Shown: positions 25,520-43,252 of the stretch, piece after piece | Layout: each line of letters starts with the position of its first letter | How positions within the stretch are numbered: the stretch's first letter is position 1 | Source of the DNA: an uncultured Acidobacteriaceae bacterium | GTDB taxonomy: Bacteria; Acidobacteriota; Terriglobia; Terriglobales; Acidobacteriaceae | Length of the DNA stretch: 64,000 bases | Assembly (NCBI GenBank): GCA_963758835.1 | Contig: CAVWWZ010000015.1 | Span: 128,249-192,248 of the forward strand | Reading direction: 5' to 3' | The notes under the pieces: generated by a model | Told to the model about the DNA's origin: nothing | Databases searched by the model: none | The model's input: only the letters and a program-made list of their open reading frames with translations | Position numbers and translations under genes: made by a program

Positions 25520-25520
25520 A

Positions 25521-25606
25521 GCTGTCAGCCGTTAGCTCTTAGCTGTTAGCTAGAAGCAGGCAACGACCGCTAGCTAAAAGCTAATGGCTGAATAGCTAAG
25601 AGCCAG
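25521..25606. repeat. Heptad stem-loop module, TTAGCT/AGCTAA flavour (rpsJ|rplC)
   Basis: The left arm is gtcagcc-gttagct-cttagct-gttagct-ag. The right arm is ctagcta-aaagcta-atggctg-aatagcta-agagcc. The arms are complementary with a one-unit slip. Confidence 0.85.
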
Positions 25607-25682
25607 ATAAAACAAAGCTTCCGCGGCGCAAGCCCCCGGTCGCAATCGAACCGGAACAGGAAGCAGAGTTGAGGACAAGAAC

Positions 25683-26413
25683 ATGGCAGTCAGCGGAATT
25701 TTAGGTAAGAAAGTCGGCATGACGCAGCTGTTCGATGACAAGGGTGATGTTCACCCGGTCACGGTGCTGCAGGCCGGCCCCTGCGTTGTGACCCAGCGCA
25801 AGACGGTTACGAAGGACGGCTACGATGCCGCCCAGATCGGCCTGGTGGAGTTCGTGAAGGAGTCGCGCCTGACCAAGGCGATGAAGGGCCACTTCGCGAA
25901 GAACAATCTGCCGCCGCTGCGCTTCCTGCGCGAAGTGCCGATCGTGGTCGATCCCGAAGTCGCAGGATGGCGTCAAGGTCGGCGACAAAGTCCTGGTCGA
26001 CATGTTCGACGGCGAGAAGTTTGTCGACGTCGTCGGCAACCAGCAAGGGTCGCGGTTTTGCGGGCGTGGTGAAGCGTCACAAGTTTGCCGGCGGCGCGGC
26101 CTCGCACGGATCGATGTTCCAGATCACCGGTTCGATCGGCTCCTCGGCGTTTCCCGTCGCGCGTGTTCAAAGGCATGCGCATGTCGGGACACATGGGCGT
26201 GGACCAGGTGACGATCCGCAACCTGCGGGTGCTGGGCGTCGACAAGGACGAGAACCTGCTGGTGGTGGAAGGCGCGGTGCCGGGACACGAAAGACGGTTA
26301 CGTGATGATCACCAAGGCGAAGAAGCCACCGAGAGAGCGTCGTGGATTCAGCGGCTGCGGCACGGTCGATCCGTTGAAGGCTTCGAAGCGCGCAGGTGGC
26401 GAAGAAGAAATAA
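25683..26413 (+). CDS. rplC: 50S ribosomal protein L3, frameshifted; 3' end inferred
   Basis: The protein reads [34 protein letters not shown]...[16 protein letters not shown]...[17 protein letters not shown]. The end was taken at the TAA preceding the repeat module. Confidence 0.9.
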
Positions 26414-26483
26414 GTGTCAGTTGCAGTTGTCAGCAGTGAGCTGATGGGCACGAGCTAGACGGCTGACAGCTGACAGCAACTGG
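26414..26483. repeat. Heptad stem-loop module (rplC|rplD)
   Basis: The left arm is gtgtcagttgcagttgtcagcag and the right arm is gctgacagctgacagcaactgg. Confidence 0.8.
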
Positions 26484-26491
26484 AAGAGATT

Positions 26492-27152
26492 ATGGCGACG
26501 ATTGATGTAGTGAATCTGGGCGGCGAGAAGGTAGGCTCCCTCGAGCTGGCCGATGAAGTATTCGGCGCGGTCAACGAGGACCTGCTCTGGGAAGCGGTGA
26601 AGCACTACCGCGCCGGGCAGCGTGCCGGTACGCACGCCACCAAGAACAAGAAGCTGGTCAGCGGCGCGGGCAAGAAGCTGTGGAAGCAGAAGGGTACCGG
26701 ACGCGCGCGCGTGGGTTCGATCCGCTCTCCTCTGTGGCGGCATGGCGGCACGGTCCACGGACCGCAGCCCCGCTCCTACGACTACGCTTTCCCGCGCAAG
26801 AAGCTGCTGGGCGCGCTGCGCTCGGCGCTGGCGGCCAAGCTGGCGGACGGCAAGCTGGTGGTGGTCGAGAGCTTCGAGCTCGAAGGAACCCAAGACCAAG
26901 GCGTTCCGCAAGACGCTGGACAAGCTGAATGCCAAGGGCACGACGCTGCTGGTGGAGAGCTCGGCGAGCGAGAACCAGAACCTGCACCTGAGCTCGCGCA
27001 ACCTGGAAGGCGTGGAGCTGGTGGCGGGCAACCAGGTTCATCCTTATCACCTGCTGCGGTATGAGAGCGCGATCTTCGCGCGTCCGGCGCTGGAGAAGTT
27101 GCAGGACTCGCTGAAGGCGACGGCGCCCAAGCGCAAAGCGGAGGTGGCGTAA
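26492..27152 (+). CDS. rplD: 50S ribosomal protein L4, one frameshift near 26888
   Basis: The protein reads [15 protein letters not shown]...[32 protein letters not shown]...[19 protein letters not shown]. Confidence 0.95.
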
Positions 27153-27446
27153 TGAAGTCGGCATATCAGATCATTCGCCGCCCGGTGATCACGGAAAAGG
27201 GTCTCGGGCGTAAAGGAAACGGAAGCGACGCTGGTCTTCGAAGTTGCGGTCAAGGCGACCAAGACGGAGATCAAGCAGGCGGTGCAGAGCATTTTCAAGG
27301 TGAAGGTGGACTCGGTGCGCACCGCGAACTTTGAAGGCAAAGAGCGCCGCCGCGGCAAGTTCACCGGCTATCGTCCCGACTGGAAGAAGGCGTACGTGCG
27401 GTTGAAGGCGGGCGAGAAGATGCCCGAGTACGCAGAGAACCTGTAG
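27152..27446 (+). CDS. rplW: 50S ribosomal protein L23, one frameshift near 27210
   Basis: The start is an ATG overlapping the rplD stop (TAATG). The protein reads [17 protein letters not shown]...KTEIKQAVQSIFKVKVDSVRT...KKAYVRLKAG. Confidence 0.93.
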
Positions 27447-27520
27447 CGCAGTAGATCAGTGGCTAGTAGTTAGTGGCTAGAAGCTGCCAGCTAAGAGCGA
27501 GCAGCGAGAAGCGAGTAGGA
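27447..27520. repeat. Heptad-phased run of about 10 units without a clear long stem (rplW|rplB)
   Basis: The units are cagtggc tagtagt tagtggc tagaagc tgccagc taagagc gagcagc gagaagc gagtagg. Confidence 0.75.
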
Positions 27521-27522
27521 AC

Positions 27523-28349
27523 ATGGCAATCAAGACTTACAGACCGGTAACTCCGACGCGGCGGTTCACGACCATCGACGGTCAACGATGACCTGACGAC
27601 CAACCGGCCGTACAAGCCGCTGACCGAACCGAAGCAGCGCACCAGCGGACGCCGCAATGCCGGCGACCTGACCATCTGGCATCGCGGCGGCGGACACAAG
27701 CGCAAGCTGCGCATCATCGACTTCAAGCGCGACAAGTCCGGCATTCCGGCGACCGTCGCCTCCATCGAATACGATCCCAACCGCTCGGCGCGCATCGCGC
27801 TGCTGAACTACGCCGATGGCGAGAAGCGCTACATCGTGTGTCCGGTCGGCCTGAAGGTGGGCGCCAAGATCGTCAGCGGTCCCGAAGCCGACATCCTGGT
27901 AGGCAATGCTCTGCCGCTGCGCAACATTCCTCCCGGCACCACGGTGCACAACATCGAGCTGAAGCCGGGCAAGGGCGCGCAGATGGCGCGCTCGGCAGGA
28001 GCCCAGGCGCAGCTGGTGGCGAAAGAAGGCGACTACGCGCTGCTGAAGCTGCCTTCCGGCGAAACCCGCAAGGTGCTGGTGGATTGCATGGCGACCGTGG
28101 GCCAGGTGGGCAACACCGATCACGAAAACGTTTCCATCGGCAAGGCCGGCCGCACGCGCTGGCTGGGACATTCGCCCGACCAACCGCGGCGTGGTCATGA
28201 ACCCGGTCGACCATCCGCACGGCGGTGGTGAAGGCAAGACCAGCGGCGGACGTCATCCGGTGACTCCGTGGGGCCAGCCGACGCGCGGCTACAAGACTCG
28301 CAACAACAAGCGGACCGATAAGTTCATCGTGAACCGCAGACAGAAGTAG
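27523..28349 (+). CDS. rplB: 50S ribosomal protein L2, frameshifted
   Basis: The protein reads [15 protein letters not shown]...[17 protein letters not shown]...[14 protein letters not shown]...[25 protein letters not shown]. Confidence 0.95.
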
Positions 28350-28361
28350 GACTGAGACGAT

Positions 28362-28662
28362 ATGGCACGTTCAACCAAAAAAGGTCCGTTCATCGATTCG
28401 CACCTGCAGGCCAAGATCGACGGCATGAACGCGCGCAACGAGAAGAAGGTCGTGCGCACCTGGTCGCGCCGCTCGACGGTGATTCCCGGAGATGGTGGGA
28501 CACACGCTGGCGGTGCATAACGGCAAGAAGTTCATTCCGGTGTACGTCACCGAAAACATGGTGGGCCACAAGCTGGGCGAGTTCAGCATGACCCGCACCT
28601 TCAAGGGCCACTCGGTAAAGGCGGCGACGGAAACGTCGGCCAAGCCGGCGCCGGCGAGATAA
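28362..28662 (+). CDS. rpsS: 30S ribosomal protein S19, one indel near 28486
   Basis: The protein reads [15 protein letters not shown]...[33 protein letters not shown]. Confidence 0.95.
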
Positions 28663-28671
28663 GGAAACGAC

Positions 28672-29221
28672 ATGGAATTCACAGCCAAACTGAATTACGT
28701 GCGCGTCTCGCCGCAGAAGGCGCGCCTGGTGCTGGACCTGATCAAGGGCCGCCGGGTGGAAGAGGCGCTGGACACGCTGCTGTTCACCAAGAAGGGCATT
28801 GCGCCGCAAGCTGTACAAGCTGCTGCGCTCGGCGGTTGAGAACGCGAACTATGTCAGCGCGGAAAAGGGCCTGGATGTCGATGTCGACCGGCTGTATCGT
28901 GAAGCGCGCCATCGCCAACGAAGGTCCGCGCATGAAGCGCATCCGTCCGGCGCCGATGGGCCGCGCCTATCGCTATCAGCGCCGCATCTCGCACATGGAG
29001 ATTGCGCTGGCGGAGAAGGCTTCGGGCAACGGCAAGCGGCTGGCACGACGTTGGTGCAGAACGGTGCAAGAAGGCGGCAGAAGGCTCCGGCCAAGAAGCG
29101 CGGCGAAGAAGAAGCGGCTGCAAAGAAGGCGCCGGCCAAGAAGTCGGCGGCAAGAAGAAAGACTGCCCGGCCAAAAAGTTGTGCAGCGGCGATGCCAGAG
29201 AGCGCCGCCGAGAAAAAGTAG
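28672..29221 (+). CDS. rplV: 50S ribosomal protein L22 with a Lys/Ala-rich C-terminal extension, frameshifted
   Basis: The protein reads [36 protein letters not shown]...[27 protein letters not shown], followed by an AKKAPAKK-type tail (ORF 28799-29221). Confidence 0.9.
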
Positions 29222-29228
29222 CGAGACT

Positions 29229-29895
29229 ATGGGACAGAAAGTCCATCCATACGGATTTCGCCTGGGCGTCACCAAGCCGTGGAGGTCGCGCTGGTTCGTG
29301 GTGCGCGACTACGACAAACTGCTGCTGGAAGACGTCAAGCTGAAGGCTGAGCTGAAGGACAAGCTCAAGTCGGCCGGCGTCAGCTCGATCGAGATCGAGC
29401 GTCCGGGCAACAAGCTGCGCATCATCATCCGCACCGCGCGTCCGGGCATCATCATCGGCCGCAAGGGCGCTGAGATCGACAAGCTGAAGCAGGAGATCCA
29501 GAAGCGCACCAACCGCGAGGTGTACGTCGATATCCAGGAAGTGCACAAGCCTGAGCTTGATGCGCAGCTGGTGTCGGAGAACATCGCGCTGCAGCTGGAA
29601 AAGCGTGTCGGCTTCCGCCGTGCCATGCGTAAGGCGGTGGATTCGGCGCTGCGCTTCGGCTGCAAGGGCATCAAGGTCCGCGTCAGCGGCCGCCTGAACG
29701 GCAACGAAATCGCGCGCTCCGAGTGGTATCTGCAGGGCCGTCTGCCGCTGCACACGCTGCGTGCCGACATCGACTACGGCTTCGCCGAAGCGCACACCAC
29801 GTACGGCATCATCGGCGTGAAGTGCTGGGTGTACAAGGGCGAGATTTATCGCGAGAAGCGCCGCGAACCGCAGGCTGCACAGCGGAGCGTTTTAA
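29229..29895 (+). CDS. rpsC: 30S ribosomal protein S3. The end is placed at the position-conserved TAA, but as given the frame stays open to 29996.
   Basis: The protein reads [23 protein letters not shown]...[19 protein letters not shown]...[14 protein letters not shown]. The TAA at 29893 lies 2 nt before the GCAGTTG module, as at other genes. The in-frame stop is at 29996, inside the repeat spacer. Confidence 0.85.
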
Positions 29896-29897
29896 AA

Positions 29898-30022
29898 GCA
29901 GTTGCCAGTGGTCGGTGGTCAGTTGTCAGTGATGAGCCGACGAGACTGCGAGTGGAACTGAGCGAAGAGCAGCTGGAGTTGGACAGCTGGAATTAACTGA
30001 CAACCGACAACTGACAACTGAG
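29898..30022. repeat. Heptad stem-loop module (rpsC|rplP)
   Basis: The left arm is gcagttgccagtggtcggtggtcagttgtcagtg and the right arm is ctgacaaccgacaactgacaactgag. Confidence 0.9.
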
Positions 30023-30031
30023 AACTTCATT

Positions 30032-30448
30032 ATGTTGATGCCAAAGAAAGTTAAGTACCGCAAGCAGCAGCGCGGTCGTATGTGCGGCAAGGCGTGGCGC
30101 GGCGGAGAGCTGTCCTTCGGCGATTTCGGCTTGAAGGTCATGGAGCCGGGCTGGATCACCGACCGGCAGATTGAAGCCAGCCGTGTGGCCATGACGCGTT
30201 TCGTCAAGCGCGGCGGCAAGATCTGGATCCGGCTGTTTCCGGACAAGCCGGTCACCAAGAAGCCGGCCGAAACCCGTATGGGCAAAGGCAAGGGCGCTCC
30301 GGATCATTGGGTAGCCGTGGTGCGCCCGGGCAAGATCCTGTTCGAGATGGAAGGGGTCTCGGTAGCCGATGCGGCCGAGGCAATGCGCCTGGCTTCGCAC
30401 AAGCTGCCGCTGCGCACCAAGTTCGTGCAGCGCGAAGGCGTGCACTAA
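30032..30448 (+). CDS. rplP: 50S ribosomal protein L16 (intact)
   Basis: The protein reads [17 protein letters not shown]...[12 protein letters not shown]...[16 protein letters not shown]. Confidence 0.97.
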
Positions 30449-30450
30449 AA

Positions 30451-30564
30451 GCAGTTGTCAGTGGTCGGTTGTCAGTTGTCAGAGAATCAGCATGGCGATT
30501 GGCAGACTAGTCGGTTCAGTGGCAGCTGACAACTGACAACTGACAACTGACAACCGACAACTGG
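30451..30564. repeat. Heptad stem-loop module; the right arm has 5 units (rplP|rpmC)
   Basis: The left arm is gcagttgtcagtggtcggttgtcagttgtcag and the right arm is cagctg-acaactg-acaactg-acaactg-acaaccg-acaactg-g. Confidence 0.92.
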
Positions 30565-30572
30565 ATTTCAAG

Positions 30573-30885
30573 ATGAATGTAGACAAGATTCGAAACCTGA
30601 CCGATGTCGAACTGACGCATCAGCAGCGCGAGCTGGCTGACCAGCTCTTCAAGATGAAGTTTCAGCTGAAGATGGGACAGACCGAGAGCCTGAAGAAGAT
30701 TCGCGAGCTGAGGAAAGACATTGCGCGCGTCAACACCGTGATGCGCCAGAAGCAGCTTGCCGGCGGCAATGGCGCAGCAGCGGCCAGCAACCGGTCGGCA
30801 AGCCAAGCGCGCCAGCAGCCGGCGAAGAAGACAGCCGACGGCGAAGAAGGCGGCCAAGAAGAAGGCTGCGACGGAGAAAAAGTAA
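30573..30885 (+). CDS. rpmC: 50S ribosomal protein L29 with a Lys/Ala-rich C-terminal tail, frameshifted
   Basis: The protein reads MNVDKIRNLTDVELTHQQRELADQLFKMKFQLKMGQTESLKKIRELRKDIARVNTV. The tail ends ...EKK* at 30883-30885. Confidence 0.85.
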
Positions 30886-30888
30886 GCC

Positions 30889-31261
30889 ATGGCCGAAACG
30901 ACAACAACCAGTAACGACAAAGGCCGCGGGCCGGCGCAAGACCCTGATCGGCAAAGTGGTGTCGACCAAGATGGCCAAGACCATCGTGGTCGAAGTGCGG
31001 CGGCAGAAGGCGCACCCGTTCTACAAGCGCGTGGTGGCGCGCAGCAAGAAGTTCTACGCCCACGACGAGGAGGGCACGGCGCACGTCGGCGACTTCGTGA
31101 AGATCGAAGAGACCCGTCCGCTGTCCAAGCTGAAGCGGTGGCAGTTGAAGGAGATTGTGCAGCGCGCTGCGCTGGTGGCGCCGGTCGAAGAGCCGGCAGA
31201 GCTAAGGCTATCCTGCCCACGCCAAGGGCGTAGGATGGGGCACCCGGACGATGCGGGATGA
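30889..31261 (+). CDS. rpsQ: 30S ribosomal protein S17, frameshifted; 3' end uncertain
   Basis: [12 protein letters not shown] is followed by [64 protein letters not shown]. As given, the frame runs through a hairpin motif to the TGA at 31259. Confidence 0.85.
31215..31247. repeat. Second TGGGGCACCCG-tailed imperfect hairpin (rpsQ 3' end / rplN leader)
   Basis: The sequence is gcccacgccaagggcgtaggatggggcacccgg. It shares CCCAC...TGGGGCACCCG with 25068-25108. Confidence 0.5.
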
Positions 31262-31275
31262 GAAGGAGACAAGTT

Positions 31276-31647
31276 ATGGCAGTGATGATGAGAACCATGC
31301 TCGATGTCGCCGACAACTCCGGCGCGCGCAAGCTGCAGATGATTCTGCCGCTGGGCGGCTCGACCGGACTGGTCGCCGGATTGGGCGACGTGATTACCGC
31401 CGCGGTGAAGGAAGCTTCGCCGGACGGCACCGCCAAGAAGGGCACCGTGGTGAAGGCGGTGATCGTGCGCACCCGCAAGGAGCATCGCCGGCGCGACGGT
31501 ACCTACATCCGCTTCGACCAGAATGCGGCGGTGCTGATCAACGACAGCCATGAGCCGGTCGGCACGCGCGTCTTCGGTCCCGTGGCCCGCGAGCTGCGCG
31601 AGAAGAAGTTTTTGAAGATTGTTTCCCTGGCGCCGGAAGTACTGTAA
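31276..31647 (+). CDS. rplN: 50S ribosomal protein L14 (intact)
   Basis: The protein reads [23 protein letters not shown]...[12 protein letters not shown]...[18 protein letters not shown] Shine-Dalgarno sequence lies upstream. Confidence 0.95.
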
Positions 31648-31650
31648 GGG

Positions 31651-31730
31651 CCGTTGCCAGTTGTCAGTTGCCAGTCAGCTAAGAGCAAAGGCTAAAAGCC
31701 AAGAGCCAGGCTGACGAGGCGACAGTTAAC
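31651..31730. repeat. Heptad module with a degenerate right arm (rplN|rplX)
   Basis: ccgttgccagttgtcagttgccagtcagc is followed by taagagc-aaaggct-aaaagcc-aagagcc and gctgacgaggcgacagttaac. Confidence 0.7.
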
Positions 31731-31745
31731 GAAGGATTGAGAACA

Positions 31746-32092
31746 ATGCAGAAGAGTGTAGATATTCGCCGCAACGATCAGGTGCGGGTGATTACCGGGC
31801 GCGACAAGGGTAAGCAAGGCCGCGTGCTGCGCGTGATGCCGCGACGAGGGCAAGGTGCTGGTCGAGCACGTGATGATGGTGAAGAAGAACGTGCGTCCCA
31901 ATCCGCAGAAAAACATCAAGGGCGGCATTGCCGAGCAGGAGAGCGCGATCTCCATCAGCAACGTGATGCTGATGCTGCAACTCGTGCAACCGGCCGGTGC
32001 GCGTGGGACACGAGAAGCGCGGCGACCGCAACGTGCGTGTGTGCAAGAGCTGCGGCAATCACGCTGGAGAAATAGCGGTTAGCTTGGCTTAG
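31746..32092 (+). CDS. rplX: 50S ribosomal protein L24 with a CxxC...CxxC C-terminal segment, frameshifted; ends at 32075 or 32092
   Basis: The protein reads MQKSVDIRRNDQVRVITGRDKGKQGRVL, then VLVEHVMMVKKNVRPNPQKNIKGGIAEQESAISISNVML, then CNSCNRPVRVGHEKRGDRNVRVCKSCGN in a third frame. Confidence 0.88.
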
Positions 32093-32128
32093 ACTTGGCA
32101 GGCGTAGCAAAGACTAGCCATGCCAGCT
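32076..32128. repeat. Weak TAG-rich heptad-like module (rplX|rplE)
   Basis: The sequence is cggttagcttggcttagacttggcaggcgtagcaaagactagccatgccagctg. TAG codons at 32073, 32080 and 32090 fall in three different frames. Confidence 0.5.
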
Positions 32129-32201
32129 GAATCGCCACTAAATTGAATCCCTCACGAACCGGTACGAACGCCGAAACCGTGAGAAAGGTAGAAGCAGAGA
32201 A

Positions 32202-32903
32202 ATGGCAGACGAGAAGAAACAGAAGGCGCAGCAGGGCGGACAGGCGAAGCCGCAGGCGACAAGAAGCCCAAGGCGGCAAGAAGGCTGAAGCCGGCAGGCG
32301 AAGCGCGGCGAGCAGCATGGAAAGCCGGCGCGGCCGAAGGCGACCAATCGCGAGACCGCGCGCATGCGCGACCGCTACTACAAAGAGGTTTTGCCGGCGC
32401 TGATGAAGGAGCTCGGCCTCGAGAATCCGATGGCCGCTCCCAAGCTGGAGAAGATCATCGTCAACATGGGTGTGGGCGAAGCGACGCAGAATGCCAAGCT
32501 GATCGATCCGGCGGCGACCGAAGTCGGCCAGATCACCGGCCAGAAGCCGGTCATCACCAAGGCGCGGAAGTCGATTGCGGCCTTCAAGGTTCGCGAAGGC
32601 ATGCCCATCGGTGTGATGGTGACGCTGCGCGGCGACCGCATGTACGAGTTCTTCGATCGCCTGGTGAACGTGGCCCTGCCGCGCGTTCGTGACTTCCGCG
32701 GCGTGCCGACCAAGTCGTTCGACGGACGCGGCAATTACACCCTGGGTGTGCGCGATCAGCTGATCTTCCCGGAGATCGATTACTCGAAGGTCGAGAAGAT
32801 GAAGGGCATGAACATCACGATCGTGACCTCGGCGGGCAGCGACGATCATGCGCGCGCGCTGCTGAAGCACATGGGAATGCCGTTCCGGCAGCCAGGACAG
32901 TAA
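32202..32903 (+). CDS. rplE: 50S ribosomal protein L5 with a Lys-rich N-terminal extension (the extension is frameshifted)
   Basis: The core is ORF 32364-32903: [39 protein letters not shown]...MNITIVTSA. The upstream ATG at 32202 reads [18 protein letters not shown]. Confidence 0.9.
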
Positions 32904-33038
32904 GCAGTTGCCGGTAGTCAGTTGACAGTCGAAGCGGCGAGCGACATAAGTTAGCCCAGCGCTTCGAGCTGGTGGATAACAGGATCAAGTCCGAAGGGAC
33001 GGCAGAAGCTAAGAGCTAAAGGCTAACAGCTAAGAGCG
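32904..33038. repeat. Chimeric heptad spacer: CAGTTG-type left module and AGCTAAG-type right module that are not complementary (rplE|rpsN)
   Basis: The left module is gcagttgccggtagtcagttgacagtcg (32904-32931). The right module is gaagctaagagctaaaggctaacagctaagagcg (33005-33038). Confidence 0.85.
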
Positions 33039-33048
33039 AAAAGGAAAC

Positions 33049-33234: not shown

Positions 33235-33238
33235 ACAG

Positions 33239-33283
33239 CGGTTAGTGGCTAGTCAGTTAGCGACAAGTTGAGTAGTGAGTACG
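33239..33283. repeat. Left-type heptad module only (rpsN|rpsH)
   Basis: The sequence is cggttagtggctagtcagttagcgacaagttgagtagtgagtacg. Confidence 0.7.
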
Positions 33284-33370
33284 TCGCGGCTGGTTCTTAC
33301 GATTCCGCTTCCGGCGGCACCGATACAGGTCGCAGTAAGCGAACGGGCGACGATATTAGGAGAACAGAGC

Positions 33371-33769: not shown

Positions 33770-33903
33770 CAGCTGTCAGCTGATCGGCTGTCAGCCGTCG
33801 AGTCACAGCGCGCTGAAGGACGAGCGCGACGCTCCGACTCAGGATGACAAGGCTGTATTAGAGCTGATAGCTGACAGCTAAGAGCTGACAGCTAAAGGCT
33901 GAA
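33770..33903. repeat. Heptad stem-loop module, CAGCTGT/ACAGCTR flavour (rpsH|rplF)
   Basis: The left arm is cagctgtcagctgatcggctgtcagccgtcgag and the right arm is gagctgatagctgacagctaagagctgacagctaaaggctgaa. Confidence 0.88.
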
Positions 33904-34446: not shown

Positions 34447-34516
34447 CGTTGTCGGTTGCCGGTTGTCAGTGACAGCTGAGCGGCGATCAGGACTCGAGGC
34501 TAAGAGCCAAGAGCTG
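34447..34516. repeat. Heptad module with a local TGTCA-G-TGACA palindrome and an AGCTAAG-type tail (rplF|rplR)
   Basis: The sequence is cgttgtcggttgccggttgtcagtgacagctgagc ... ggctaagagccaagagctg. Confidence 0.8.
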
Positions 34517-34964: not shown

Positions 34965-34995
34965 CAGTTGTTAGTTGCCGGTTGTCAGTTGTCGG
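34965..34995. repeat. Left-type heptad module (rplR|rpsE)
   Basis: The sequence is cagttgttagttgccggttgtcagttgtcgg. Downstream, only the degenerate cgacagaagccgaatagcgagaaacgagag is present. Confidence 0.8.
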
Positions 34996-35055
34996 CCGGT
35001 ACGCTCAACAGACTAGAATTTGGCGACAGAAGCCGAATAGCGAGAAACGAGAGAA

Positions 35056-35565: not shown

Positions 35566-35567
35566 AC

Positions 35568-35790
35568 ATGGCGCGTATTCGCAAGAAAGAAGTAGTAAAG
35601 GCCGGCCGCGCCGGGAACCAAGATGCAGTTGAAGTGGGTCCGCTCGGCCATTGCGGCTCCGGTGAAGCAGAAGCTGGTGATCAAGGGACTGGGCTTCACC
35701 CGCTTGAACCAGGTCGTGGAGCGGGAAGACACGCCCTCGATCCGCGGCATGGTGGCCAAGGTGCCGCACCTGGTTGAGATCGTAAAATAG
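35568..35790 (+). CDS. rpmD: 50S ribosomal protein L30, frameshifted
   Basis: MARIRKK... is followed by [53 protein letters not shown] in a second frame. The stop TAG is at 35788. Confidence 0.85.
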
Positions 35791-35916
35791 TTGTCAGTTG
35801 CCAGTTGTCAGTTGTCGGTCAGAGGCAATCGGCGAGCTCGAACTACGAGCGGTGGAAAGAGTCGCAAGCCGCGGTTATCGACTGACAACGGACAACTGGC
35901 GACCGACAACTGAAGG
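35789..35916. repeat. Heptad stem-loop module that begins inside the rpmD stop codon (rpmD|rplO)
   Basis: The left arm is (t)agttgtcagttgccagttgtcagttgtcggtcag and the right arm is cgactgacaacggacaactggcgaccgacaactgaagg. Confidence 0.9.
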
Positions 35917-35923
35917 TTAGACA

Positions 35924-36363: not shown

Positions 36364-36364
36364 G

Positions 36365-36502
36365 GCAGTTGTCGGTTGTCAGTTGCCAGTTGCCAGATCG
36401 GAACTGCAGCGAGCTGATTGCTGACGTGAGCTGAACTGCTAGTTGAGTAGTCAGTTGCGGATTGTCAGCTGACAACTGACAACTGGCAACTGACAACTGA
36501 GG
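36365..36502. repeat. Heptad stem-loop module followed by TTTT (rplO|secY)
   Basis: The left arm is gcagttgtcggttgtcagttgccagttgccag and the right arm is cagctgacaactgacaactggcaactgacaactgagg. There is an inner palindrome ttgtcagctgacaa. Confidence 0.92.
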
Positions 36503-36507
36503 TTTTG

Positions 36508-37906
36508 ATGCTTGAGAAGTTGGCCAACGTATTCCGCGTTCCCGATCTGCGAAAGCGCATTCTGTTCACGCTTGGGCTGCTGGCGGTTTACCGCTTCGGC
36601 GGTCACATTCCGACGCCGGGTATCAACGCCGACAAGCTGGCGCAGTTCTTCGACCAGAACCGTGGCAGCTTCCTGGGCTTCGTCGACCTGTTCAGCGGCG
36701 GCCAGTTGCGCCGGCTGACCATCTTCGCCCTGGGCATCATGCCGTACATCACGGCATCGATCATTCTGCAGTTGATGACCGTGGTCTACGAGCCGCTGGC
36801 CAAGCTGCAGAAGGAAGGCGAGCTGGGCCGCAAGAAGATCACCCAGTGGACGCGCTACCTGACTCTGGTGTCTGAGCGCGGTGCAGTCGCTGGGTATCGC
36901 CTATCACGCTGCAGCGGCAGCCGGCGACTTCGTGGTCAATCCGGGCATCGGCTTCGTGCTGATGACCATGCTGACGCTCACCACGGGCAGCGTCTTCATC
37001 ATGTGGCTGGGCGAGCAGATCACCGAGCGCGGCGTCGGCAACGGCATGTCGCTGCTGATCTTCGCCGGCATCGTGGTTGGCTTGCCGCGCGGCGTCGCCG
37101 ACCTGTGTGAGAAGGTTCAGAATCGCAGGCATGGGGCGCGTTCACCGTTCCCGCCATGCTGATGCTGGTTGTGCTGATGGTCGCGGTAGTCGCGTTCATC
37201 GTCTTCGTGGAGCGCAGCGAACGCCGCATTCCGGTGCAGTACGCCAAGCGCGTGGTGGGACGCAAGGTCATGGGCGGGCAGTCGACGCACCTGCCGTTGC
37301 GGGTGAACTCCGGCGGCGTTATGCCGGTCATCTTCGCCTCGTCGGTGTTGACCTTGCCGCAGACGCGCGGGCGCGTTGCTTCAAGGACAACCGCTACTTC
37401 GGACCGCATGCTGCGATGCGCTGCGCTGGGGCGAGCCGCTGTACACGCTGCTGTACGCCGTCGGCATCATTTTCTTCGCGTACTTCTACGTGTCGATTGT
37501 CTTCAACCCGACCGAGGTTGCCGACAACATGCGGAAGTACGGCGGGTTCATTCCGGGCATTCGGCCGGGCGCGAGAACGGCGAACTACATCAACGACATT
37601 CTGACCCGCATCACCCTGGTCGGTGCGTTGTACCTGATCCTGATTTCGTTCATCCCTGAATGGATGATCGCCGGTATCCACCTCAACCACCTGTGCGGTC
37701 CGGTGGGCGCGTTCTTCGAGCAGCTGCCGACCTGGGTGACCAACGGTCTGGGCGTGAACTTCTACTTCGGCGGCACTTCGCTGCTGATCGTGGTCGGCGT
37801 GGCGATGGATACGGTCAACCAGGTCGAGTCGCAGCTGGTCATGCGGCATTACGAAGGATTTACCCCGCGCAGCGGACGTGTGCGCGGGCGCAGGGCGACG
37901 TGGTAA
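36508..37906 (+). CDS. secY: Preprotein translocase subunit SecY, at least 4 frame changes
   Basis: The protein reads [39 protein letters not shown]...[16 protein letters not shown]...[23 protein letters not shown]...[15 protein letters not shown]. An alternative TTG start lies at 36505. Confidence 0.95.
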
Positions 37907-37909
37907 GAA

Positions 37910-38022
37910 GCAGTTGTCAGTTGTCAGCTGGCCAGTTGTCAGTTAAGGCAAGCCTGAACTAGACTGGCAGCTGCATACGGCTAAGCTTAGCTGACAACCG
38001 ACAACTCGCCACTGACAACTGG
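37910..38022. repeat. Heptad stem-loop module followed by TTTTT (secY|adk)
   Basis: The left arm is gcagttgtcagttgtcagctggccagttgtcagtt and the right arm is agctgacaaccgacaactcgccactgacaactgg. Confidence 0.9.
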
Positions 38023-38133
38023 TTTTTCGGAGCTACCGGGAGGCTCCGGCCCGCTAGGCGGGCAGAAAGAGCTGTGGTTCGGCTAACGGGGTCGAGCCAT
38101 GGAGTGCACCGACTTCCTCGGCTGTGGGCGTAC

Positions 38134-38848
38134 ATGGCGAACGAGCGCATAGTCGGTCCCATAATCCTGCTGGGACCGCCGGCCGCCGGCAAGGGCACGC
38201 AGGCCAAGCTGATTGCGAGGACTTCGGCATTCCGCAGATCTCCACCGGAGACATGCTGCGGGAGAACGTGGCCCGCGAACACCGAGCTGGGCATGAAGGC
38301 CAAGGCGATCATGGAACGCGGCGAACTGGTTCCCGATGAACTGGTTTGCGACATGGTGGCGGGCCGGCTGCGCGAGGCGGATTGCTGTCGCGGGTTCATC
38401 CTGGATGGATTTCCGCGGACGGTGCCCCAGGCGGAGTGGTTGGACTGCGTATTTGGAGAAAGATGCGGGAAGACAAGGACGATGTAGCTGCGCAAGCAGG
38501 CCTGTGCGGCGCCGGTTGTGATCCGGTTGCTGGTAGATTATAATAATCTACTGCAACGGATTACCGGACGTCGTTCTTGTCCCACCTGTGGGCGGATCTA
38601 CAACGTTTACCTCCAGCCTCCAAAAGTCCAGGGCATCTGTGATGTCGAAGGACGCACTTTGGTTTGCGCCCCGACGATGAGGAAAGATGTTGTCGAAGAG
38701 CGCATGAAGGCCTATGAGCGGCAGACGCTGCCCCTGGTGGACTATTACTGGTCCTGCGGGACGGCTGGTCGAGGTCGATGGCGATCAGCCGGTGGAAGAG
38801 GTGATGGCGCAGGCGTTTAGTGCGATAGAGAATGTCAATCGTTTGTAA
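38134..38848 (+). CDS. adk: Adenylate kinase (Zn-lid type), several frameshifts
   Basis: The protein reads ILLGPPAAGKGTQAKLIA...ISTGDMLR...GFILDGFPRTVPQAE...RITGRRSCPTCGRIYN...VVEERMKAYERQTLPLVDYY. Confidence 0.9.
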
Positions 38849-39584
38849 GTCGTCTTCGGAAATCGAAAAGATGCGCCGCAGCGGACACATCGTCCGCCAG
38901 GTTCTGGAAGCGGTCAGGGAAGCAGTGGCTCCGGGCAGCTCGACGATGGATCTGGAGCGCGTAGCCGAACGCAAGATCAAGGACCTGGGCGCCAAGCCGG
39001 CATTCAAGGGTTATTACGATTATCCCTGCGTGCTGTGCACCTCGGTGAACAACGAGATCGTTCACGGCATCCCGTCGGAAAAGCGGGTGCTGAAGGCCGG
39101 CGACATCGTCTCCATCGATTGCGGTGTGGTGCTGGACGGCTACTACGGTGATTCGGCGATCACCGTGCCGGTAGGGCGATGAGGTCAAGCCGGAGCTGCA
39201 GAAGTTGCTGGATGTGACGCGCGAGTCGCTGGCCCACGGCATCGAGGCGGCGCGATCGGCAACACGGTCGGCGATGTTGGCGCGGCGGTGCAGCAGGTGG
39301 TCGAGGCCAACGGCTTCAGCGTAGTGCGCGAGTTTGTAGGACACGGCATCGGCACCAGGCTGCACGAAGATCCGCAGGTTCCGAACTACGGCACGCCGGG
39401 ACACGGTGCCGAAGCTGCGCGACGGCATGGTGATCGCCATCGAGCCGATGGTGAATATGGGCGTCCGGAGACGCGGCTGCTGGACGATAAGTGGACGGCG
39501 GTCACCGAAGACGGCAGCTACAGCGCCCACTTCGAGCATTGCATCGCGGTGACGAAGAATGGGCCGGTGATTTTGACGGAGTAG
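38832..39584 (+). CDS. map: Type I methionine aminopeptidase, frameshifted (about 39180-39290)
   Basis: The protein reads MSIVCKSSSEIEKMRRSGHIV...CTSVNNEIVHGIPS...DIVSIDCGVVLDGYYGDSA...FVGHGIG...IAIEPM...SAHFEHCIAVT. The gene overlaps the adk end by 17 nt. Confidence 0.93.
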
Positions 39585-39595
39585 TAGCGGCGGAT

Positions 39596-39694
39596 GCAGT
39601 GGCCTAGCGTGTGAGCAGCTGGGGTAGGGCGGGAAAAGTTCGAGTCTTCGGGGACGATCAAACTGGCAACTGACCACTGGCAACTGACAACTGA
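39596..39694. repeat. Heptad module with a degenerate left arm and a strong right arm (map|infA)
   Basis: The left arm is gcagtggcctagcgtgtgagcagctgg and the right arm is caaactggcaactgaccactggcaactgacaactga. Confidence 0.8.
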
Positions 39695-39705
39695 TTTGGG
39701 GATGA

Positions 39706-39924
39706 ATGAGTAAGGAAGACGCGATTGAAGTAATGGCAGTGGTGGTTGAGCCCCTGCCCAATGCGATGTTTCGAGTGGAGCTGGAGAACAAGCATCAGGT
39801 CCTGGCGCATGTCTCCGGCAAGATGCGCAAGAACTTCATTCGCATTCTTCCCGGCGACCGGGTGGCGGTGGAGTTGTCGCCCTACGACCTGACCCGCGGC
39901 CGCATCGTGTATCGGTACAAGTAG
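39706..39924 (+). CDS. infA: Translation initiation factor IF-1 (intact)
   Basis: The protein is [72 protein letters not shown]. Confidence 0.97.
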
Positions 39925-40000
39925 CAGTTGTCAGTTGCCGGTTGTCAGTCGTCGGCAATCCGGAGCTGACGAACGGACAACTGATAACTGACAACTGAGG
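39925..40000. repeat. Compact heptad hairpin occupying the whole spacer (infA|rpmJ)
   Basis: The left arm is cagttgtcagttgccggttgtcagtcgtcgg, the loop is caatccgga, and the right arm is gctgacgaacggacaactgataactgacaactgagg. Confidence 0.93.
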
Positions 40001-40005
40001 AATTC

Positions 40006-40119
40006 ATGAAGGTACGGGCATCGGTAAAGAAGATTTGTGACAAGTGCAAGGTGATTCGCCGCCACGGCGTGGTTCGCGTGATCTGCGAAAACTCGAAGCA
40101 CAAACAGAGACAGGGATAA
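40006..40119 (+). CDS. rpmJ: 50S ribosomal protein L36 (37 aa; below the ORF-track cutoff)
   Basis: Manual translation gives [42 protein letters not shown] Shine-Dalgarno sequence lies 6 nt upstream. Confidence 0.93.
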
Positions 40120-40192
40120 CTAGCAGCAGCTAGCAGCTGTAGCCGATTGGCAGCTTGGCGAAATGCCAGAGTAGCTAAATAGCTAACAGCAG
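40120..40192. repeat. TAGC/AGCTAA-flavour heptad-like module followed by TTTTT (rpmJ|rpsM)
   Basis: The sequence is ctagcagcagctagcagctgtagcc ... gagtagctaaatagctaacagcag. Confidence 0.65.
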
Positions 40193-40207
40193 TTTTTCGG
40201 AGTAAAT

Positions 40208-40594
40208 ATGGCACGTATTGCAGGCGTGGATCTTCCGCGCAACAAGCACATCAAGATCGCGCTGACTTACATCTTCGGCATCGGCAACTCGCGCTCGGCC
40301 GAGATTCTTGGCTCGGCGAATGTCGAGTCCAACAAGAAGGTCAGCGATCTGAACGAAGATGAGGTCAACCGCATCCGCCAGGTCATCGAAGAGGGCGGCA
40401 ACGTCGAAGGCGATCTGCGTAAAGACGTTTCGATGCACATCAAGCGCCTGATCGAAATCGGCTCCTATCGCGGGTATCGTCATCGCCGCAGCCTGCCGGT
40501 TCGCGGCCAGCGCACCCACACCAATGCCCGCACCCGTAAGGGACCGCGCAAGGGCACGGTAGCCAATAAGAAGAAAGCGGCGGGGAAGACATAA
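40208..40594 (+). CDS. rpsM: 30S ribosomal protein S13 (intact)
   Basis: The protein reads [26 protein letters not shown]...[29 protein letters not shown]. Confidence 0.97.
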
Positions 40595-40597
40595 ACC

Positions 40598-41019
40598 ATG
40601 GCTAAAGCAGCGGTTCCGCCGCAGGCGACAAAAAGGGCAAGACGAAGAAGTTCAAGAAGAAGGAGCGCAAGCACATTCCTCACGGACTGGTGCATGTGCA
40701 GGCTTCCTTCAACAACACCATCGTCACCATCACCGACCCGACGGCAACACCGTGTCGTGGAAGAGTTCGGGGTCGCTGGGCTTCCGCGGATCGCGTAAGG
40801 GCACTCCGTTTGCCGCGCAGCAGGCCGCAGCCAACGCCGCCAACCAGGCGCGCGATCACGGCATGCGCAGCGTGGATGTGCGGGTCAGCGGTCCGGGTTC
40901 GGGACGTGAGTCGGCGGTGCGCGCTTTGGCCGTCGTCCGGCCTGGATGTCCGCTCGATCAAGGACGTGACGCCGGTTCCGCATAACGGCTGCCGTCCGCC
41001 GAAGCGCCGCAGAGTCTAG
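40598..41019 (+). CDS. rpsK: 30S ribosomal protein S11, frameshifted
   Basis: MAKAA... is followed by [41 protein letters not shown]...[17 protein letters not shown] and [20 protein letters not shown]. Confidence 0.93.
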
Positions 41020-41020
41020 A

Positions 41021-41150
41021 GATCAGTGGTCAGTGGCTAGAGCTGCCTCTGGTGCCCAATCCGGCTAGTGGGTCTCGAGAGCTTGGATCGAAGTGATTGG
41101 ATGCGACATCTGATCAACTGACCACTAATCCACTAGCCACTGACAACTGA
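41021..41150. repeat. Heptad stem-loop module, CAGTGGY flavour, followed by TTTT (rpsK|rpsD)
   Basis: The left arm is gatcagtggtcagtggctagagc and the right arm is gatcaactgaccactaatccactagccactgacaactga. Confidence 0.85.
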
Positions 41151-41252
41151 TTTTGATCGGGAAGAAAGGACGCCAAGTCCCGTAAACCGATCCGATAACA
41201 CGGACGGAGCGTAGACCAGGCTCTGACCCTACACTGATTCAGGAGAAGTAAC

Positions 41253-41885
41253 TTGGCACGTTACAAAGACGCAGTATGCCGCCTTTGCCGTCGCGAAGGC
41301 ATGAAGTTGTTCCTCAAGGGCGCAAAGTGCTTCACCGACAAGTGTCCGATCGAAAAGCGCAACTTCGCTCCCGGCCAGCACGGTAAAGATCGCAAGGCCA
41401 AGATCGTCGGCTACGGCCTGCAGCTTCGCGAGAAGCAGAAGGCGAAGCGCATGTACTTCGCCCAGGAAGGCCAGTTCCGCAACTACTTCGAGAGGGCTGC
41501 CCGCGCCAAGGGTGTCACCGGCGAAATTGCTGTTGCAGCAGCTGGAGCGCCGTCTGGACAACGTTGTCTACCGCCTCGGCTTTGCCGTAGCGCGCCGTCA
41601 GGCGCGTCAGCTGGTGCGTCACGGCCACGTCGTCGGTGAACGGCCGCAAGGTCAACATTCCTTCGTTCCAGGTGCACGTCGGCGACGAGATCGCGGTGCG
41701 CGAGAGCAGCAACAAGCTCGCGATTCTCGAGATCGCGAAGGAATTTGCCAGCCATCAGGCTCCGCCGACACTGGCTGGAAGTCGATCGCGACGGCTACAA
41801 GGGCCGGGTCCTGGCGCTGCCGAAGCGCGAAGACATCAACCTGCCTATCAACGAGCAGCTGATCGTCGAACTTTACAGCAAGTAG
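41253..41885 (+). CDS. rpsD: 30S ribosomal protein S4 (Zn-ribbon type), frameshifted
   Basis: TTG start behind AGGAG. The protein reads [36 protein letters not shown]...[15 protein letters not shown]...[13 protein letters not shown]...[12 protein letters not shown]. Confidence 0.93.
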
Positions 41886-42049
41886 TAGCAAGCCAGCAGC
41901 GGCCGATGGCTATCGTGCCAGGTGCGACTGCGTTCACAGCGAGCATGCGTGGCATGACGCGCAGTTCATCAGACCTGCGCGTCGGTCCCGACTTCGCGCC
42001 AGATCAGCCGGCCTGCCGTGCAGCACGGCCGAAGAGAAAGGAGTTACGA

Positions 42050-43094
42050 ATGCTTTGGAAAGGTTTTCAGAAACCGAAACGGCTGGCTACTGACACCGAA
42101 ACGCTGACCGACAAGTACGGTCACTTCTGGGCACAGCCGTTTGAACGCGGTTTCGGAACGACCATCGGCAACGCGCTGCGCCGCGTGTTGCTGTCCTCCA
42201 TCGAAGGCGCTGCCGTCACGGCGGTGAAGATCGAAGGCGTGTTGCACGAGTTCCAGTCGATCCCCGGAGTGGTCGAGGATGCCACCGACATCATCCTCAA
42301 CCTGAAGCAGATTCCCTTCCGCCTGAACGGCGATGCGCCGAAGGCGATTTATCTGCGCGCCGATCAGCCGGGCGTGGTGACCTCGGGCATGATCGAAGCC
42401 GACGCCGACGTCGAAGTGCTGGACAAGGACGTCTACATCGCGACCATCAGCGAAGGCGGCAAGCTCGACATGGAAATGCGCCTGAAGAAGGGCCGCGGCT
42501 ACGTCTCGGCGGACAAGAACTTCGACGAGGACCTCGGTCTGGGATTCATTCCGATCGACTCGGTTCACTCGCCGGTCCGCAAGTGCAATTACTCGGTAGA
42601 AGCCGCTCGTCTGGGTCAGATCACCGACTACGACAAGCTGGCGATCGAGATCTGGACCAACGGTTCGGTCACTCCGGCCGATGCTCTGGGCCTGGCGGCG
42701 AAGCTGCTGAAGGACCACATGAACATCTTCATCAACTTCGAGGAGGAGCTGGAGGCGCAGGCCGCCGGCGCCTCCGACAAGCCGGAGATCCGCAACGAGA
42801 ACCTGAACCGCTCGGTGGAAGAGCTGGAGCTTTCGGTGCGCAGCTACAACTGCCTGAAGAACGCGAATATCCAGACCATCGGCGAGCTGGTGCAGAAGAC
42901 CGAAGCGGAGATGCTGAAGACCAAGAATTTCGGCCGCAAGTCGCTGAACGAGATCAAGGAGATCCTGTCCTCGATGGGCCTGAGCCTGGGCATGAAGATC
43001 GACGAGCACGGCAACGCCGTGCCGGGCAGCGGATCGATGTCGAGCGCCAGGTCTGGCATCGGCGAACTACGGCAGCATGGACCCGAATTACTAA
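42050..43094 (+). CDS. rpoA: DNA-directed RNA polymerase subunit alpha. The end is placed at the conserved TAA at 43092, but as given the frame stays open to 43153.
   Basis: The protein reads [12 protein letters not shown]...[27 protein letters not shown]...[24 protein letters not shown]...[13 protein letters not shown]. An AAGGAG Shine-Dalgarno sequence lies upstream of 42050. Confidence 0.93.
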
Positions 43095-43234
43095 GCAGTT
43101 GTCAGTGGCCGGTTGTCAGTTGTCAGTTAGCAACTGAGCAACTGAGCTACTAGCAGCTAGTACGGGCGCGGCTTCAGCGCTGCGCAGACATTTATCAAGT
43201 GCGCGGTTTCAACCGCGACTGACAACTGACAACG
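43095..43234. repeat. Heptad module with a tight proximal hairpin and a distal right arm (rpoA|rplQ)
   Basis: gcagttgtcagtggccggttgtcagttgtcagttagc is directly followed by aactgagcaactgagc. The distal arm is cgactgacaactgacaacg at 43216-43234. Confidence 0.88.
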
Positions 43235-43252
43235 TATTTAAGGATTACGGAC

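Follow-up and report, generated by a model that had tools for sequence, protein, structure and literature searches.

Introduction

Tandem repeats of seven-nucleotide units in bacterial intergenic DNA have been known since 1990, as short tandemly repeated repetitive (STRR) sequences, and were re-described in 2015 as TAACTGA repeats, in neither case with an assigned function. Here, heptamers of this kind are analyzed in a 64,000-nucleotide stretch of DNA from an uncultured Acidobacteriaceae bacterium (contig CAVWWZ010000015.1, positions 128,249 to 192,248 of the forward strand; the whole stretch is called the window, and positions are counted from its first letter). They occur at saturating density inside the S10-spc-alpha ribosomal protein cluster, whose operons are the most conserved and the most strongly expressed that a bacterium has. 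Most form modules of two arrays, one behind a stop codon and an inverted partner ahead of the following start.

The TAACTGA heptamers of Beggiatoaceae, found also in Cyanobacteria and Bacteroidetes, are mostly in the forward orientation and end ~1 nt before a start codon; they carry stops in all frames, usually lack a ribosome-binding site, and in some cases are internal to ribosomal protein operons, upstream of L3, S4 and fusA (MacGregor 2015, PMC4679880). A translational role was proposed in that work and left untested (PMC4679880). The earlier statement in a first-pass annotation of the window, that no such system was known for ribosomal operons of an Acidobacteria-like genome, is not supported insofar as it implies that nothing comparable had been described. 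The repeats of the window share with the TAACTGA class the tandem seven-nucleotide unit, the forward orientation upstream of a nearby start, the all-frame stops (here as a trend) and the position inside ribosomal protein operons. The dominant 3' unit, CAACTGA (= ACAACTG), differs from TAACTGA by one base, and TAACTGA itself is found as single units inside the arrays, at 29995 and in 39977-39997. The form is different, however. The published repeats are nearly always direct and one-armed (1 inverted case in 170), abutting the start at ~1 nt, usually without a Shine-Dalgarno sequence, whereas those of the window are mostly paired with a post-stop inverted array and end 8-14 nt upstream of the start, beside a Shine-Dalgarno sequence. 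In addition, several unit families coexist in the window (AGCTAAG and AGCTGAC are also present), and Acidobacteriota were not reported in that study.

The STRR sequences, described by Mazel in 1990, are said to be built of the units CCCCAGT, TTGGTCA and CAACAGT, to number ~100 copies per genome and to be restricted to heterocystous cyanobacteria. The likeness to STRR suggested in the first-pass annotation is real: both are tandem heptanucleotides in non-coding DNA, intergenic and inside operons, and the CAGTTGT unit is identical to that of Nostoc PCC 7120, in which ttgtcagttgtcagttgtca (csR1.1) occurs 44 times (PMC2408588). The TTGGTCG arrays of related genomes also resemble STRR2 (TTGGTCA). 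The classical units and the host restriction are nevertheless not matched, the host here belonging to Terriglobia, and the descriptions of STRR are of direct arrays and not of hairpins that span from stop to start.

Repetitive extragenic palindromic (REP) elements and the bacterial interspersed mosaic elements (BIME) of Enterobacteria and Pseudomonas are likewise extragenic hairpin repeats located after stop codons inside operons, and they can stabilize the upstream mRNA. Relatives of the window's host carry true REP-like palindromes in the same spacers as heptads. A REP, however, is one conserved palindrome of 20-40 bp with a GTAG/CGTC tag, mobilized by a REP-associated tyrosine transposase (RAYT), whereas the arms of the window are tandem heptads of several families that change freely and bear no tag; membership in this class was therefore rejected. 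The GGGAATC heptamers of Xanthomonas form intergenic arrays, some of them as inverted repeats, which vary strongly in length and sequence between close relatives at conserved positions (Rehm 2015, PMC4692102). In contrast to the window's repeats, their units are G-rich and quadruplex-forming, with no reported stop/start geometry or link to ribosomal proteins.

The modules thus belong to a widespread class of intergenic tandem heptamers (STRR-type, TAACTGA-type), present here as inverted pairs. Literature searches found nothing on heptamer repeats in Acidobacteria or on the paired stop-to-start form. New are the inverted pairing, a strand-independent polarity, the co-variation of the arms with periodic AU to CG swaps, and the absence of a G·U excess over A·C; the locus adds a phylum to the known hosts of such heptamers, in a paired, polar, stop-to-start form and with a density in ribosomal protein operons that is without precedent.

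Repeat arrays and spacers of the cluster

Tandem Repeats Finder (TRF), run on the 64-kb window, returned ~30 arrays with a period of 7 (or 14/21), all in 25532-43233. An independent period-7 scan gave 19 runs in the cluster and just two weak runs elsewhere, at 11596 and 38176. The motif CAGTTGYCAGTTGY, with up to 2 mismatches allowed, has 61 matches versus 1.29 expected from dinucleotide shuffles, and 59 of the 61 lie within 26424-43235. Its matches are split by strand: those on the plus strand are all in post-stop 5' arms, and those on the minus strand are all in pre-start 3' arms. The three scans agree with the anatomy read in the first-pass annotation, with an arm after the stop codon, a unique core, and an arm before the next start.

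The ~18.6 kb from rpsJ to rplQ contain 22 long spacers of 71-233 nt each, with a sum of 2,870 nt (15%), and 20 of the 22 hold at least one heptad array, close to the ~20 inflated spacers and ~15% of the cluster estimated earlier. No heptads are present in the other two, rpsQ|rplN (31205-31275) and rpsD|rpoA (41886-42049); the former holds an ordinary hairpin, CTATCCTGCCC...GGGCGTAGGATGG. Junctions without a module overlap or measure 2-15 nt, and no heptad modules are seen in the other ~45 kb of the window, the adjacent str operon included, so that the two corresponding claims of the annotation also stand. The str-operon spacers contain a different, REP-like palindrome (CACGACTNNAGTCGTG within GGCGCACGACTTCAGTCGTGCCGG), at 20592-20607 and 23793-23808.

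The typical module begins 0-4 nt past the stop codon with a T/G-rich array (CAGTTGY, NTCAGCT or YTTAGCT). Its A/C-rich complement (RCAACTG = CAACTGA, AGCTGAN or AGCTAAR) ends 8-14 nt ahead of the next start in simple modules, and all 3' arms of the window end at this distance, or up to ~100 nt, upstream of a start codon. A Shine-Dalgarno-like motif directly follows the last 3' unit and is abutted by the stem base (e.g. CTGAGG and CTGGAAGAG). The proposal that the arms pair in most spacers holds for ~12 of the 20 modules, which are complementary and two-armed, and fails for six that are one-armed or non-complementary (rplW|rplB, rplN|rplX, rplE|rpsZ, rplF|rplR, rplR|rpsE and map|infA). Most families of 3' units (CTGA, CTAA, CTAG) have stops in all frames. 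Since AGCGAAN, CGACCAA and CAATTACN do not, this property was rejected as a defining one and is a trend only.

Polarity of the arrays

In respect to orientation, the window was compared with other genomes, using a scan for CAGTTGYCAGTTGYCAG in one genome per species; the arrays of the at least 120 loci listed were normalized to the RCAACTG sense. Among these loci, arrays that lie no more than 20 nt past a stop codon have the CAGTTGY sense in 24 cases and the opposite sense in 5. The ATG or GTG of a reading frame of 80 codons or more is found up to 45 nt after the RCAACTG sense in 44 cases versus 10 (p = 3e-6; 107 arrays, other genomes). A hairpin module reads alike on both strands, so the order of its arms is intrinsic and can be scored with no gene annotation. 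This strand-invariant test covered 50 modules with two complementary arms, whatever their unit family; the T/G-rich arm comes first in 42 of them and second in 8 (p = 1e-6), with 118 start-like trinucleotides in the first arms and 18 in the second. The same asymmetry is found in the window: start-like trinucleotides number 55 and stop trinucleotides 27 in the 32 nt that follow stop codons, versus 6 and 48, respectively, in the 32 nt before ribosome-binding sites (36% A, 15% T in the latter). The simplest reading of the polarity is a translational filter, by which the start-proximal sequence would be kept free of rival starts, A-rich, and closed in all frames.

These orientation and position rules are also expected if the A/C-rich pre-start array served as a translation-initiation platform: an unstructured, start-free site for protein S1, Csp proteins or the 30S subunit, which the 5' arm would mask until a terminating ribosome melts the stem base and so couples the two cistrons. 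The Beggiatoa arrays, placed ~1 nt before starts and usually without a Shine-Dalgarno sequence (PMC4679880), would fit such a role, as would a stem base that abuts the Shine-Dalgarno sequence. With a ribosome modeled at the stop codon (first 14 nt unpaired), however, the opening energy of the initiation region is clearly lowered in just 3 of 22 spacers (infA|rpmJ, rpsC|rplP and rplN|rplX), and in several others the same constraint raises it, because the repeats then find a new, shifted pairing. The presence of at least five unit families in one genome further argues against a single sequence-specific binder, and we regard the platform as doubtful.

The polarity has a practical side. Public L16 calls in related contigs are 162-223 aa long or fused to L29 (P0006, P0010, P0111; L001 10001-10489; L004 10001-10672), an annotation artefact that arises because open reading frames run through the 5' arm (CAGTTGY is stop-free in all frames) and because of frameshift errors. 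Gene callers that read through stop-free 5' arms will produce extended or fused ribosomal protein models, and a minimal spacer length cannot be assumed in such operons.

Predicted folding of the modules

In the folding check proposed in the first-pass annotation, the predicted folds of 11 spacers are far more stable than those of their dinucleotide-shuffled versions (z between -3.4 and -8.5). In the fold predictions, the outer helix begins 0-4 nt past the stop codon, and the outer domain of the 11 modules comprises 25-52 bp. From the sequence and these predictions, long imperfect helices must be expected to form between the cistrons on the mRNA, and the predicted length of the 11 stems reaches the ~20 bp or more of double-stranded RNA typical of an RNase III substrate. 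A run of at least four T after the stem is found just at secY|adk, rpmJ|rpsM and rpsK|rpsD. With T runs at three modules only, the class of intrinsic terminators or attenuators (a G+C-rich hairpin followed by a U run) was rejected.

The search for a known RNA family, also proposed earlier, gave no match to the modules: at the gathering threshold, Rfam recognizes a tRNA alone in the whole window. With permissive filters, sub-threshold matches to miRNA precursor models alone appear, look-alikes of generic long hairpins.

Comparison with related genomes

Orthologous clusters were compared in four relatives, ranked by the identity of the L16 protein (L001, 99%; L004, 93%; L002 and L003, 91%). Periodic arrays are present in the same spacers of all four. 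They occur also in the str operon of L002 and in the L11|L1 and L10|L7/L12 spacers of a further relative, L125. The unit families at orthologous spacers differ by lineage (CAGTTGY/RCAACTG, NTCAGCT/AGCTGAN, TTAGCT/AGCTAAG and TTGGTCG/CGACCAA). Families of 8-mers, GTTTCAAG/CTTGAAAC and TAATTGNG/CAATTACN, share the same architecture (L002 11497-11610 and 15458-15548; L003 5194-5322 and 9248-9352; L004 11791-11903 and 14442-14559; L125 13113-13132 and 14580-14677), and the period is therefore not strictly 7. The presence/absence and unit-number differences anticipated for an alignment of orthologous spacers were seen. The L15|SecY spacer is 143 nt long in the window and 2 nt in L002-L004, whereas L2|S19 is short in the window (15 nt) and has grown longer elsewhere, with 85-179 nt in others. 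Between the window and L001 (about 86-92% identical), the arms are kept, the loops are unalignable, and the unit numbers differ.

Such polymorphism between lineages, together with terminal inverted arms and many copies, would suit miniature inverted-repeat transposable elements (MITE) or REP-type elements that owe their place in the spacers to copying by a transposase, for instance RAYT, and a MITE-like element had been among the early suggestions. The cores do not support it. They vary in sequence and length between copies, are unrelated between orthologous spacers, and cannot be aligned even with a relative of ~90% identity; no target-site duplication is visible, and MITE membership was rejected on these grounds. 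No GTAG/CGTC tag is present, the unit types of the arms change in place, and a Pfam scan, not exhaustive, of eight large flanking open reading frames found no transposase. Mobilization of this kind is very improbable.

The arms co-vary as whole arrays. In the S10|L3 spacer, each TTAGCT/AGCTAA unit of the window is replaced by TTCGCT/AGCGAA in L001. In the RNAalifold alignment of this spacer, two AU to CG double changes are spaced by seven columns (22/67 and 29/60), and columns 32/57 show a double change from UA to CG. The mismatch between arm consensus sequences is 1.0 per unit within a spacer versus 1.73 between spacers of the same genome (p = 0.004). For the mismatch spectrum, each 5' arm was aligned to the reverse complement of its 3' arm, all types of mismatch being penalized alike. 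In five genomes, the 27 stems analyzed contain 650 Watson-Crick pairs, 37 transversions, 29 A·C-type and 22 G·U-type mismatches, a test of limited power (51 transitions) in which two error-prone assemblies are included. The many G-U pairs named earlier as a signature are thus not distinctive, and strict selection for pairing at the RNA level is not supported, the missing G·U excess arguing against it. The arms are actively kept complementary, yet they do not show the tolerance of wobble pairs that is typical of RNA helices under selection, and this combination points to a process at the DNA level.

The same data bear on the possibility that the modules serve specifically in the processing or stability of RNA, with helices that would act as RNase III substrates or as barriers to 3' exonucleases, so that the giant polycistronic transcript would be cut into cistrons stabilized one by one. 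The phage T7 early region and the REP elements of E. coli offer analogues. The 11 stable stems of 20-50 bp (z from -3.4 to -8.5) and the co-varying arms are in favor of this, and so is the fact that, in all relatives, most orthologous spacers hold a hairpin of one kind or another, be it a heptad module or a REP-like palindrome. Against it stand the G·U count, not in excess of A·C, the six one-armed or non-complementary modules of the window, the mostly one-armed arrays of other phyla (among the matches listed), and the loops and unit types, which are not conserved. A simple need for a helix, moreover, explains neither the heptad period nor the polarity. On balance, a processing role is unlikely, although it and the translation platform are the main rivals of the model proposed below.

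The mismatch spectrum is strand-symmetric, and this also agrees with a role of the DNA itself, in which transcription-driven supercoiling would be absorbed by cruciforms extruded from the inverted arrays, or through binding of gyrase or nucleoid proteins to them. REP/BIME elements have been reported to bind gyrase or nucleoid proteins; REP-like palindromes share the spacers in relatives, and the site is the most heavily transcribed gene cluster. A polarity relative to start and stop codons would be unexpected for such a role, however, the str operon of the window is without heptads, and no candidate binding protein was identified, so that we consider it quite improbable.

The ribosomal protein spacers of the relatives carry other REP-like families as well, GAGACGTAGCTWGCTACGTCTC and GATTCCTC...GGAATGACAA, and REP-like palindromes lie in the EFG|EFTu and Map|IF1 spacers of L001.

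Distribution of the arrays beyond the cluster

The CAGTTGYCAGTTGYCAG matches listed are distributed over Acidobacteriota (44), Planctomycetota (20), Cyanobacteria (18), Bacteroidota (14) and others (24). As a 17-mer of this kind should be met ~280 times by chance in such a collection, and as the listed loci are a lower bound, the raw count is not evidence of enrichment. Among the matches listed, however, many arrays extend well past the 17-nt pattern, and Proteobacteria and Firmicutes are nearly absent, which indicates real arrays. Just three of the listed loci adjoin ribosomal protein genes. The acidobacterial loci have more arrays and hairpins, of several unit families and in unrelated non-ribosomal contexts, whereas the listed arrays of other phyla are mostly one-armed.

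Arrays in ribosomal protein operons are nevertheless found outside the phylum. The S13|S11 spacer of a member of Flavobacteriales reads TAA-gat-CAGTTGCCAGTTGTCAGTTGCCAGT-loop-ACTGACAACGGACAACGGACAACCGACAACTG-gataacac-ATG, a near-identical module. In a cluster from Phycisphaerales, four copies of CTGACAACTG stand directly ahead of the S19 and L29 starts, with other heptad hairpins at L5|S14 and S14|S8.

The link to this operon alone, as first supposed, does not survive these data, since arrays are present in non-ribosomal intergenic regions of Acidobacteriaceae and other phyla, and in the str and rplKAJL operons of relatives; the annotation had itself named this outcome beforehand as one that would weaken it. 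The modules are not a device specific to S10-spc-alpha, and the cluster is an exceptionally dense host of them in this lineage.

The sequence of the window is of imperfect quality. At least 16 frame changes interrupt essential genes in 21716-41000 (e.g. near 26884, 28175, 28487, 33602 and 34066), and fusA, tuf, rpsJ, rplD, rplW, rplB, rpsS, rplV, rplX, rpsH, rplF and secY are broken across 2-3 reading frames. This looks like an indel-prone long-read assembly rather than pseudogenes, and because of it the exact numbers of heptad units are approximate. The arrays themselves could then be suspected as artefacts of error-prone long-read assembly, a worry raised at the outset. Equivalent modules are present, however, in relative L003, in which all 21 genes are called intact, so that modules of this kind accompany intact genes. 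Arrays were found in many independent metagenome-assembled genomes and isolate genomes, including contigs with names in the style of short-read assemblies (k99/k141/NODE). The artefact explanation can hardly be true.

Proposed origin and role of the modules

We propose that the modules are inverted heptamer arrays grown by replication slippage, with arms kept complementary at the DNA level, filtered by translation, tolerated because the fold keeps stop and start codons adjacent, and possibly endowed with REP-like secondary effects. We rate the chances of this combined model as about even.

In this model, slippage of 7-nt units would grow the arrays and homogenize them. Template switching within the quasi-palindrome, or gene conversion there, would be the main means of keeping the arms complementary. 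Such a DNA-level process would explain why whole arms switch their unit type together, why loops and unit numbers turn over fast, and why G·U is not favored over A·C. Selection at the level of translation would then decide which arrangement survives: beside a start codon, just the A-rich orientation would be tolerated, as it lacks start codons and closes all three frames. On the mRNA, the module would form an imperfect intercistronic stem-loop of 20-50 bp, bringing the upstream stop codon near the downstream ribosome-binding site, so that an insert of 80-230 nt could be tolerated in a translationally coupled operon. As a secondary role, the stem-loop may act as a REP-like exonuclease barrier or as a substrate of a double-strand RNase.

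Several observations weigh against this model. All of its functional steps are drawn from sequence and fold predictions, and the G·U comparison on which it partly leans is, as stated, of limited power. The 20 modules lie in ~18.6 kb of an essential, highly expressed cluster, and there are none in the other 45 kb, str operon included. Such an extreme density is surprising for a merely tolerated element and could indicate positive selection; it is the main observation that a neutral model explains poorly. An over-representation near translation genes was noted for the TAACTGA repeats too (MacGregor 2015, PMC4679880). The period of 7 is not accounted for by anything tested. Four of 31 arm pairs are clearly non-complementary, so a module can do without the hairpin, and selection may act on the arrays as such.

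A broader conjecture treats the arrays as a conserved cross-phylum device of operon architecture, in which the A-rich pre-start array, devoid of start codons and closed in all frames, would be a landing pad for 30S or S1, and access to it would be gated through the post-stop array, by upstream translation or by RNase processing. We attach a small probability to it. If it were true, the arrays would provide a modular, fast-evolving tuning of the coupling and stoichiometry of single cistrons, and the STRR/TAACTGA-type repeats would finally be assigned a function.

Three rules emerge that are directly testable: a fixed, strand-independent polarity, the co-variation of arms as whole arrays, and the absence of a wobble bias. 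They separate the generation of the repeats, at the DNA level, from their filter, translation. As the flanking genes are universal, orthologous spacers can be compared across many genomes, and reporters are easy to design.

Individual modules

All modules are described on the plus strand, and those with strong predicted folds share the two-arm layout. At rpsJ|rplC (25520..25603; TRF 25532-25551 and 25571-25603), four (N)TTAGCT units face 4.5 complementary AGCTAAN units (z = -4.2). The rplC|rplD module (26416..26482) combines a CAGTTG arm with a CTGACAGC..CAACTG arm (z = -4.7), and L001 has ~2 extra units per arm. At rpsC|rplP (29899..30026), CAGTKGY x4.5 and RCAACTG x4.6 form a predicted domain of 42 bp (z = -3.5). 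The arms of rplP|rpmC (30452..30563) consist of 4.4 and 5.4 units (z = -6.4); compared with L001, the arms are kept and the loop is unalignable. The arms of rpsH|rplF (33770..33902; z = -4.9) are of the CAGCTGT and AGCTGAC/AGCTAAG types, and a module of this type occupies the same junction in 5 of 6 genomes compared, with none detected in L126. At rpmD|rplO (35788..35912; z = -6.2), also two-armed, the stop codon TAG overlaps the first unit. The rplO|secY module (36366..36500) has arms of 4.4 and 4.6 units (z = -7.1). At secY|adk (37911..38022; z = -4.2), the two arms are followed by TTTTT, and L001 has GCAGTTA/TAANNGC arms at the same place. The two-arm infA|rpmJ module (39925..39998) is the most compact and is predicted to be the most stable (z = -8.5, 30 bp). 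At rpsK|rpsD (41023..41152; z = -3.4), a CAGTGGY arm is paired with CCACTRR..ACAACTG. The rpoA|rplQ module (43096..43235; z = -5.3) is nested, with a 5' arm of 4.7 units, an inner GCAACTGA array of 3.5 and an outer ACTGACA array of 2.3.

The remaining modules are incomplete, mismatched or weak. At rplW|rplB (27457..27519; TRF 27496-27515), a CAGTGGCTAGT-type array precedes an AGCTAAG/AGCGAGN array, and the arms are non-complementary (z = -0.8). At rplN|rplX (31651..31716), CAGTTGY x3.3 is followed by an AGCTAAG-like array, again non-complementary (z = -2.7), and at rplE|rpsZ (32905..33037) a CAGTTGC-type 5' arm and a 3' arm of 4.4 AGCTAAG units do not match either. The rplX|rplE module (32078..32140; TRF 32079-32099) has a degenerate TTAGCTTGGC arm with a weak partner (z = -1.6). 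At rpsZ|rpsH (33240..33262), just a degenerate 5' array (GGTTAGTGGCTAGTCAGTTAGCG) was read from the sequence, with no significant fold. In rplF|rplR (34448..34516), an arm of three GTTGYCG units is followed by a GGCTAAGAGCCAAGAGC array. Single arms are found at rplR|rpsE (34965..34995; 5' arm, CAGTTGY x4.3) and map|infA (39659..39694; 3' arm, RCAACTG x4.9), the latter junction having both arms in L001. At rpmJ|rpsM (40121..40192), weak CTAGCAG-type and AGCTAAA-type arms, also read from the sequence, precede TTTTT (z = -1.4).

Gene order and other features of the locus

A Pfam search of X-masked three-frame translations identified S10, L4, L23, L2, S19, L22, S3, L16, L29, S17, L14, L24, L5, S14, S8 and L6, in this order, and likewise confirmed S4, RpoA and L17. 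It gave no match for L3 in the window. L3 and the remaining genes of the cluster were placed by tblastn, using as queries the proteins of a relative with Pfam-labelled gene calls. Judged by its L16 protein, the window belongs to Terriglobia (Acidobacteriota), close to Candidatus Angelobacter and to metagenome-assembled genomes of Acidobacteriaceae. The tRNA gene of the window lies at 12264-12337 on the minus strand. The end of the cluster is marked by GCACCCGGAAACGGGTGCGTCGTTTTATTT, a typical intrinsic terminator 3' of rplQ (43777-43803).

The tuf|rpsJ spacer contains a perfect 12-bp hairpin, CCCACTCATTCC...GGAATGAGTGGG (25069-25101), followed by a segment conserved with L001; together they are possibly a terminator or attenuator after tuf plus an S10 leader. 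Upstream of rplE, the hairpin CCTCACGAACCGG...CCGTGAGAAAGG (32148-32192) is kept in the window, L001, L002 and L003 amid the turnover of the repeats. It has no Rfam match and is a candidate autoregulatory ribosomal protein binding site of the spc region.

Four non-repeat segments lie 3' of modules: 38023-38134 (the 3' part of the secY|adk spacer), 33280-33370 (upstream of rpsH), 34525-34583 (upstream of rplR) and 41153-41252 (upstream of rpsD). The last is outside all fetched relative loci, and the comparison covers the other three, all of which are conserved with L001, 33280-33370 in more distant relatives too. All four contain small predicted hairpins and are possible gene-specific leaders.

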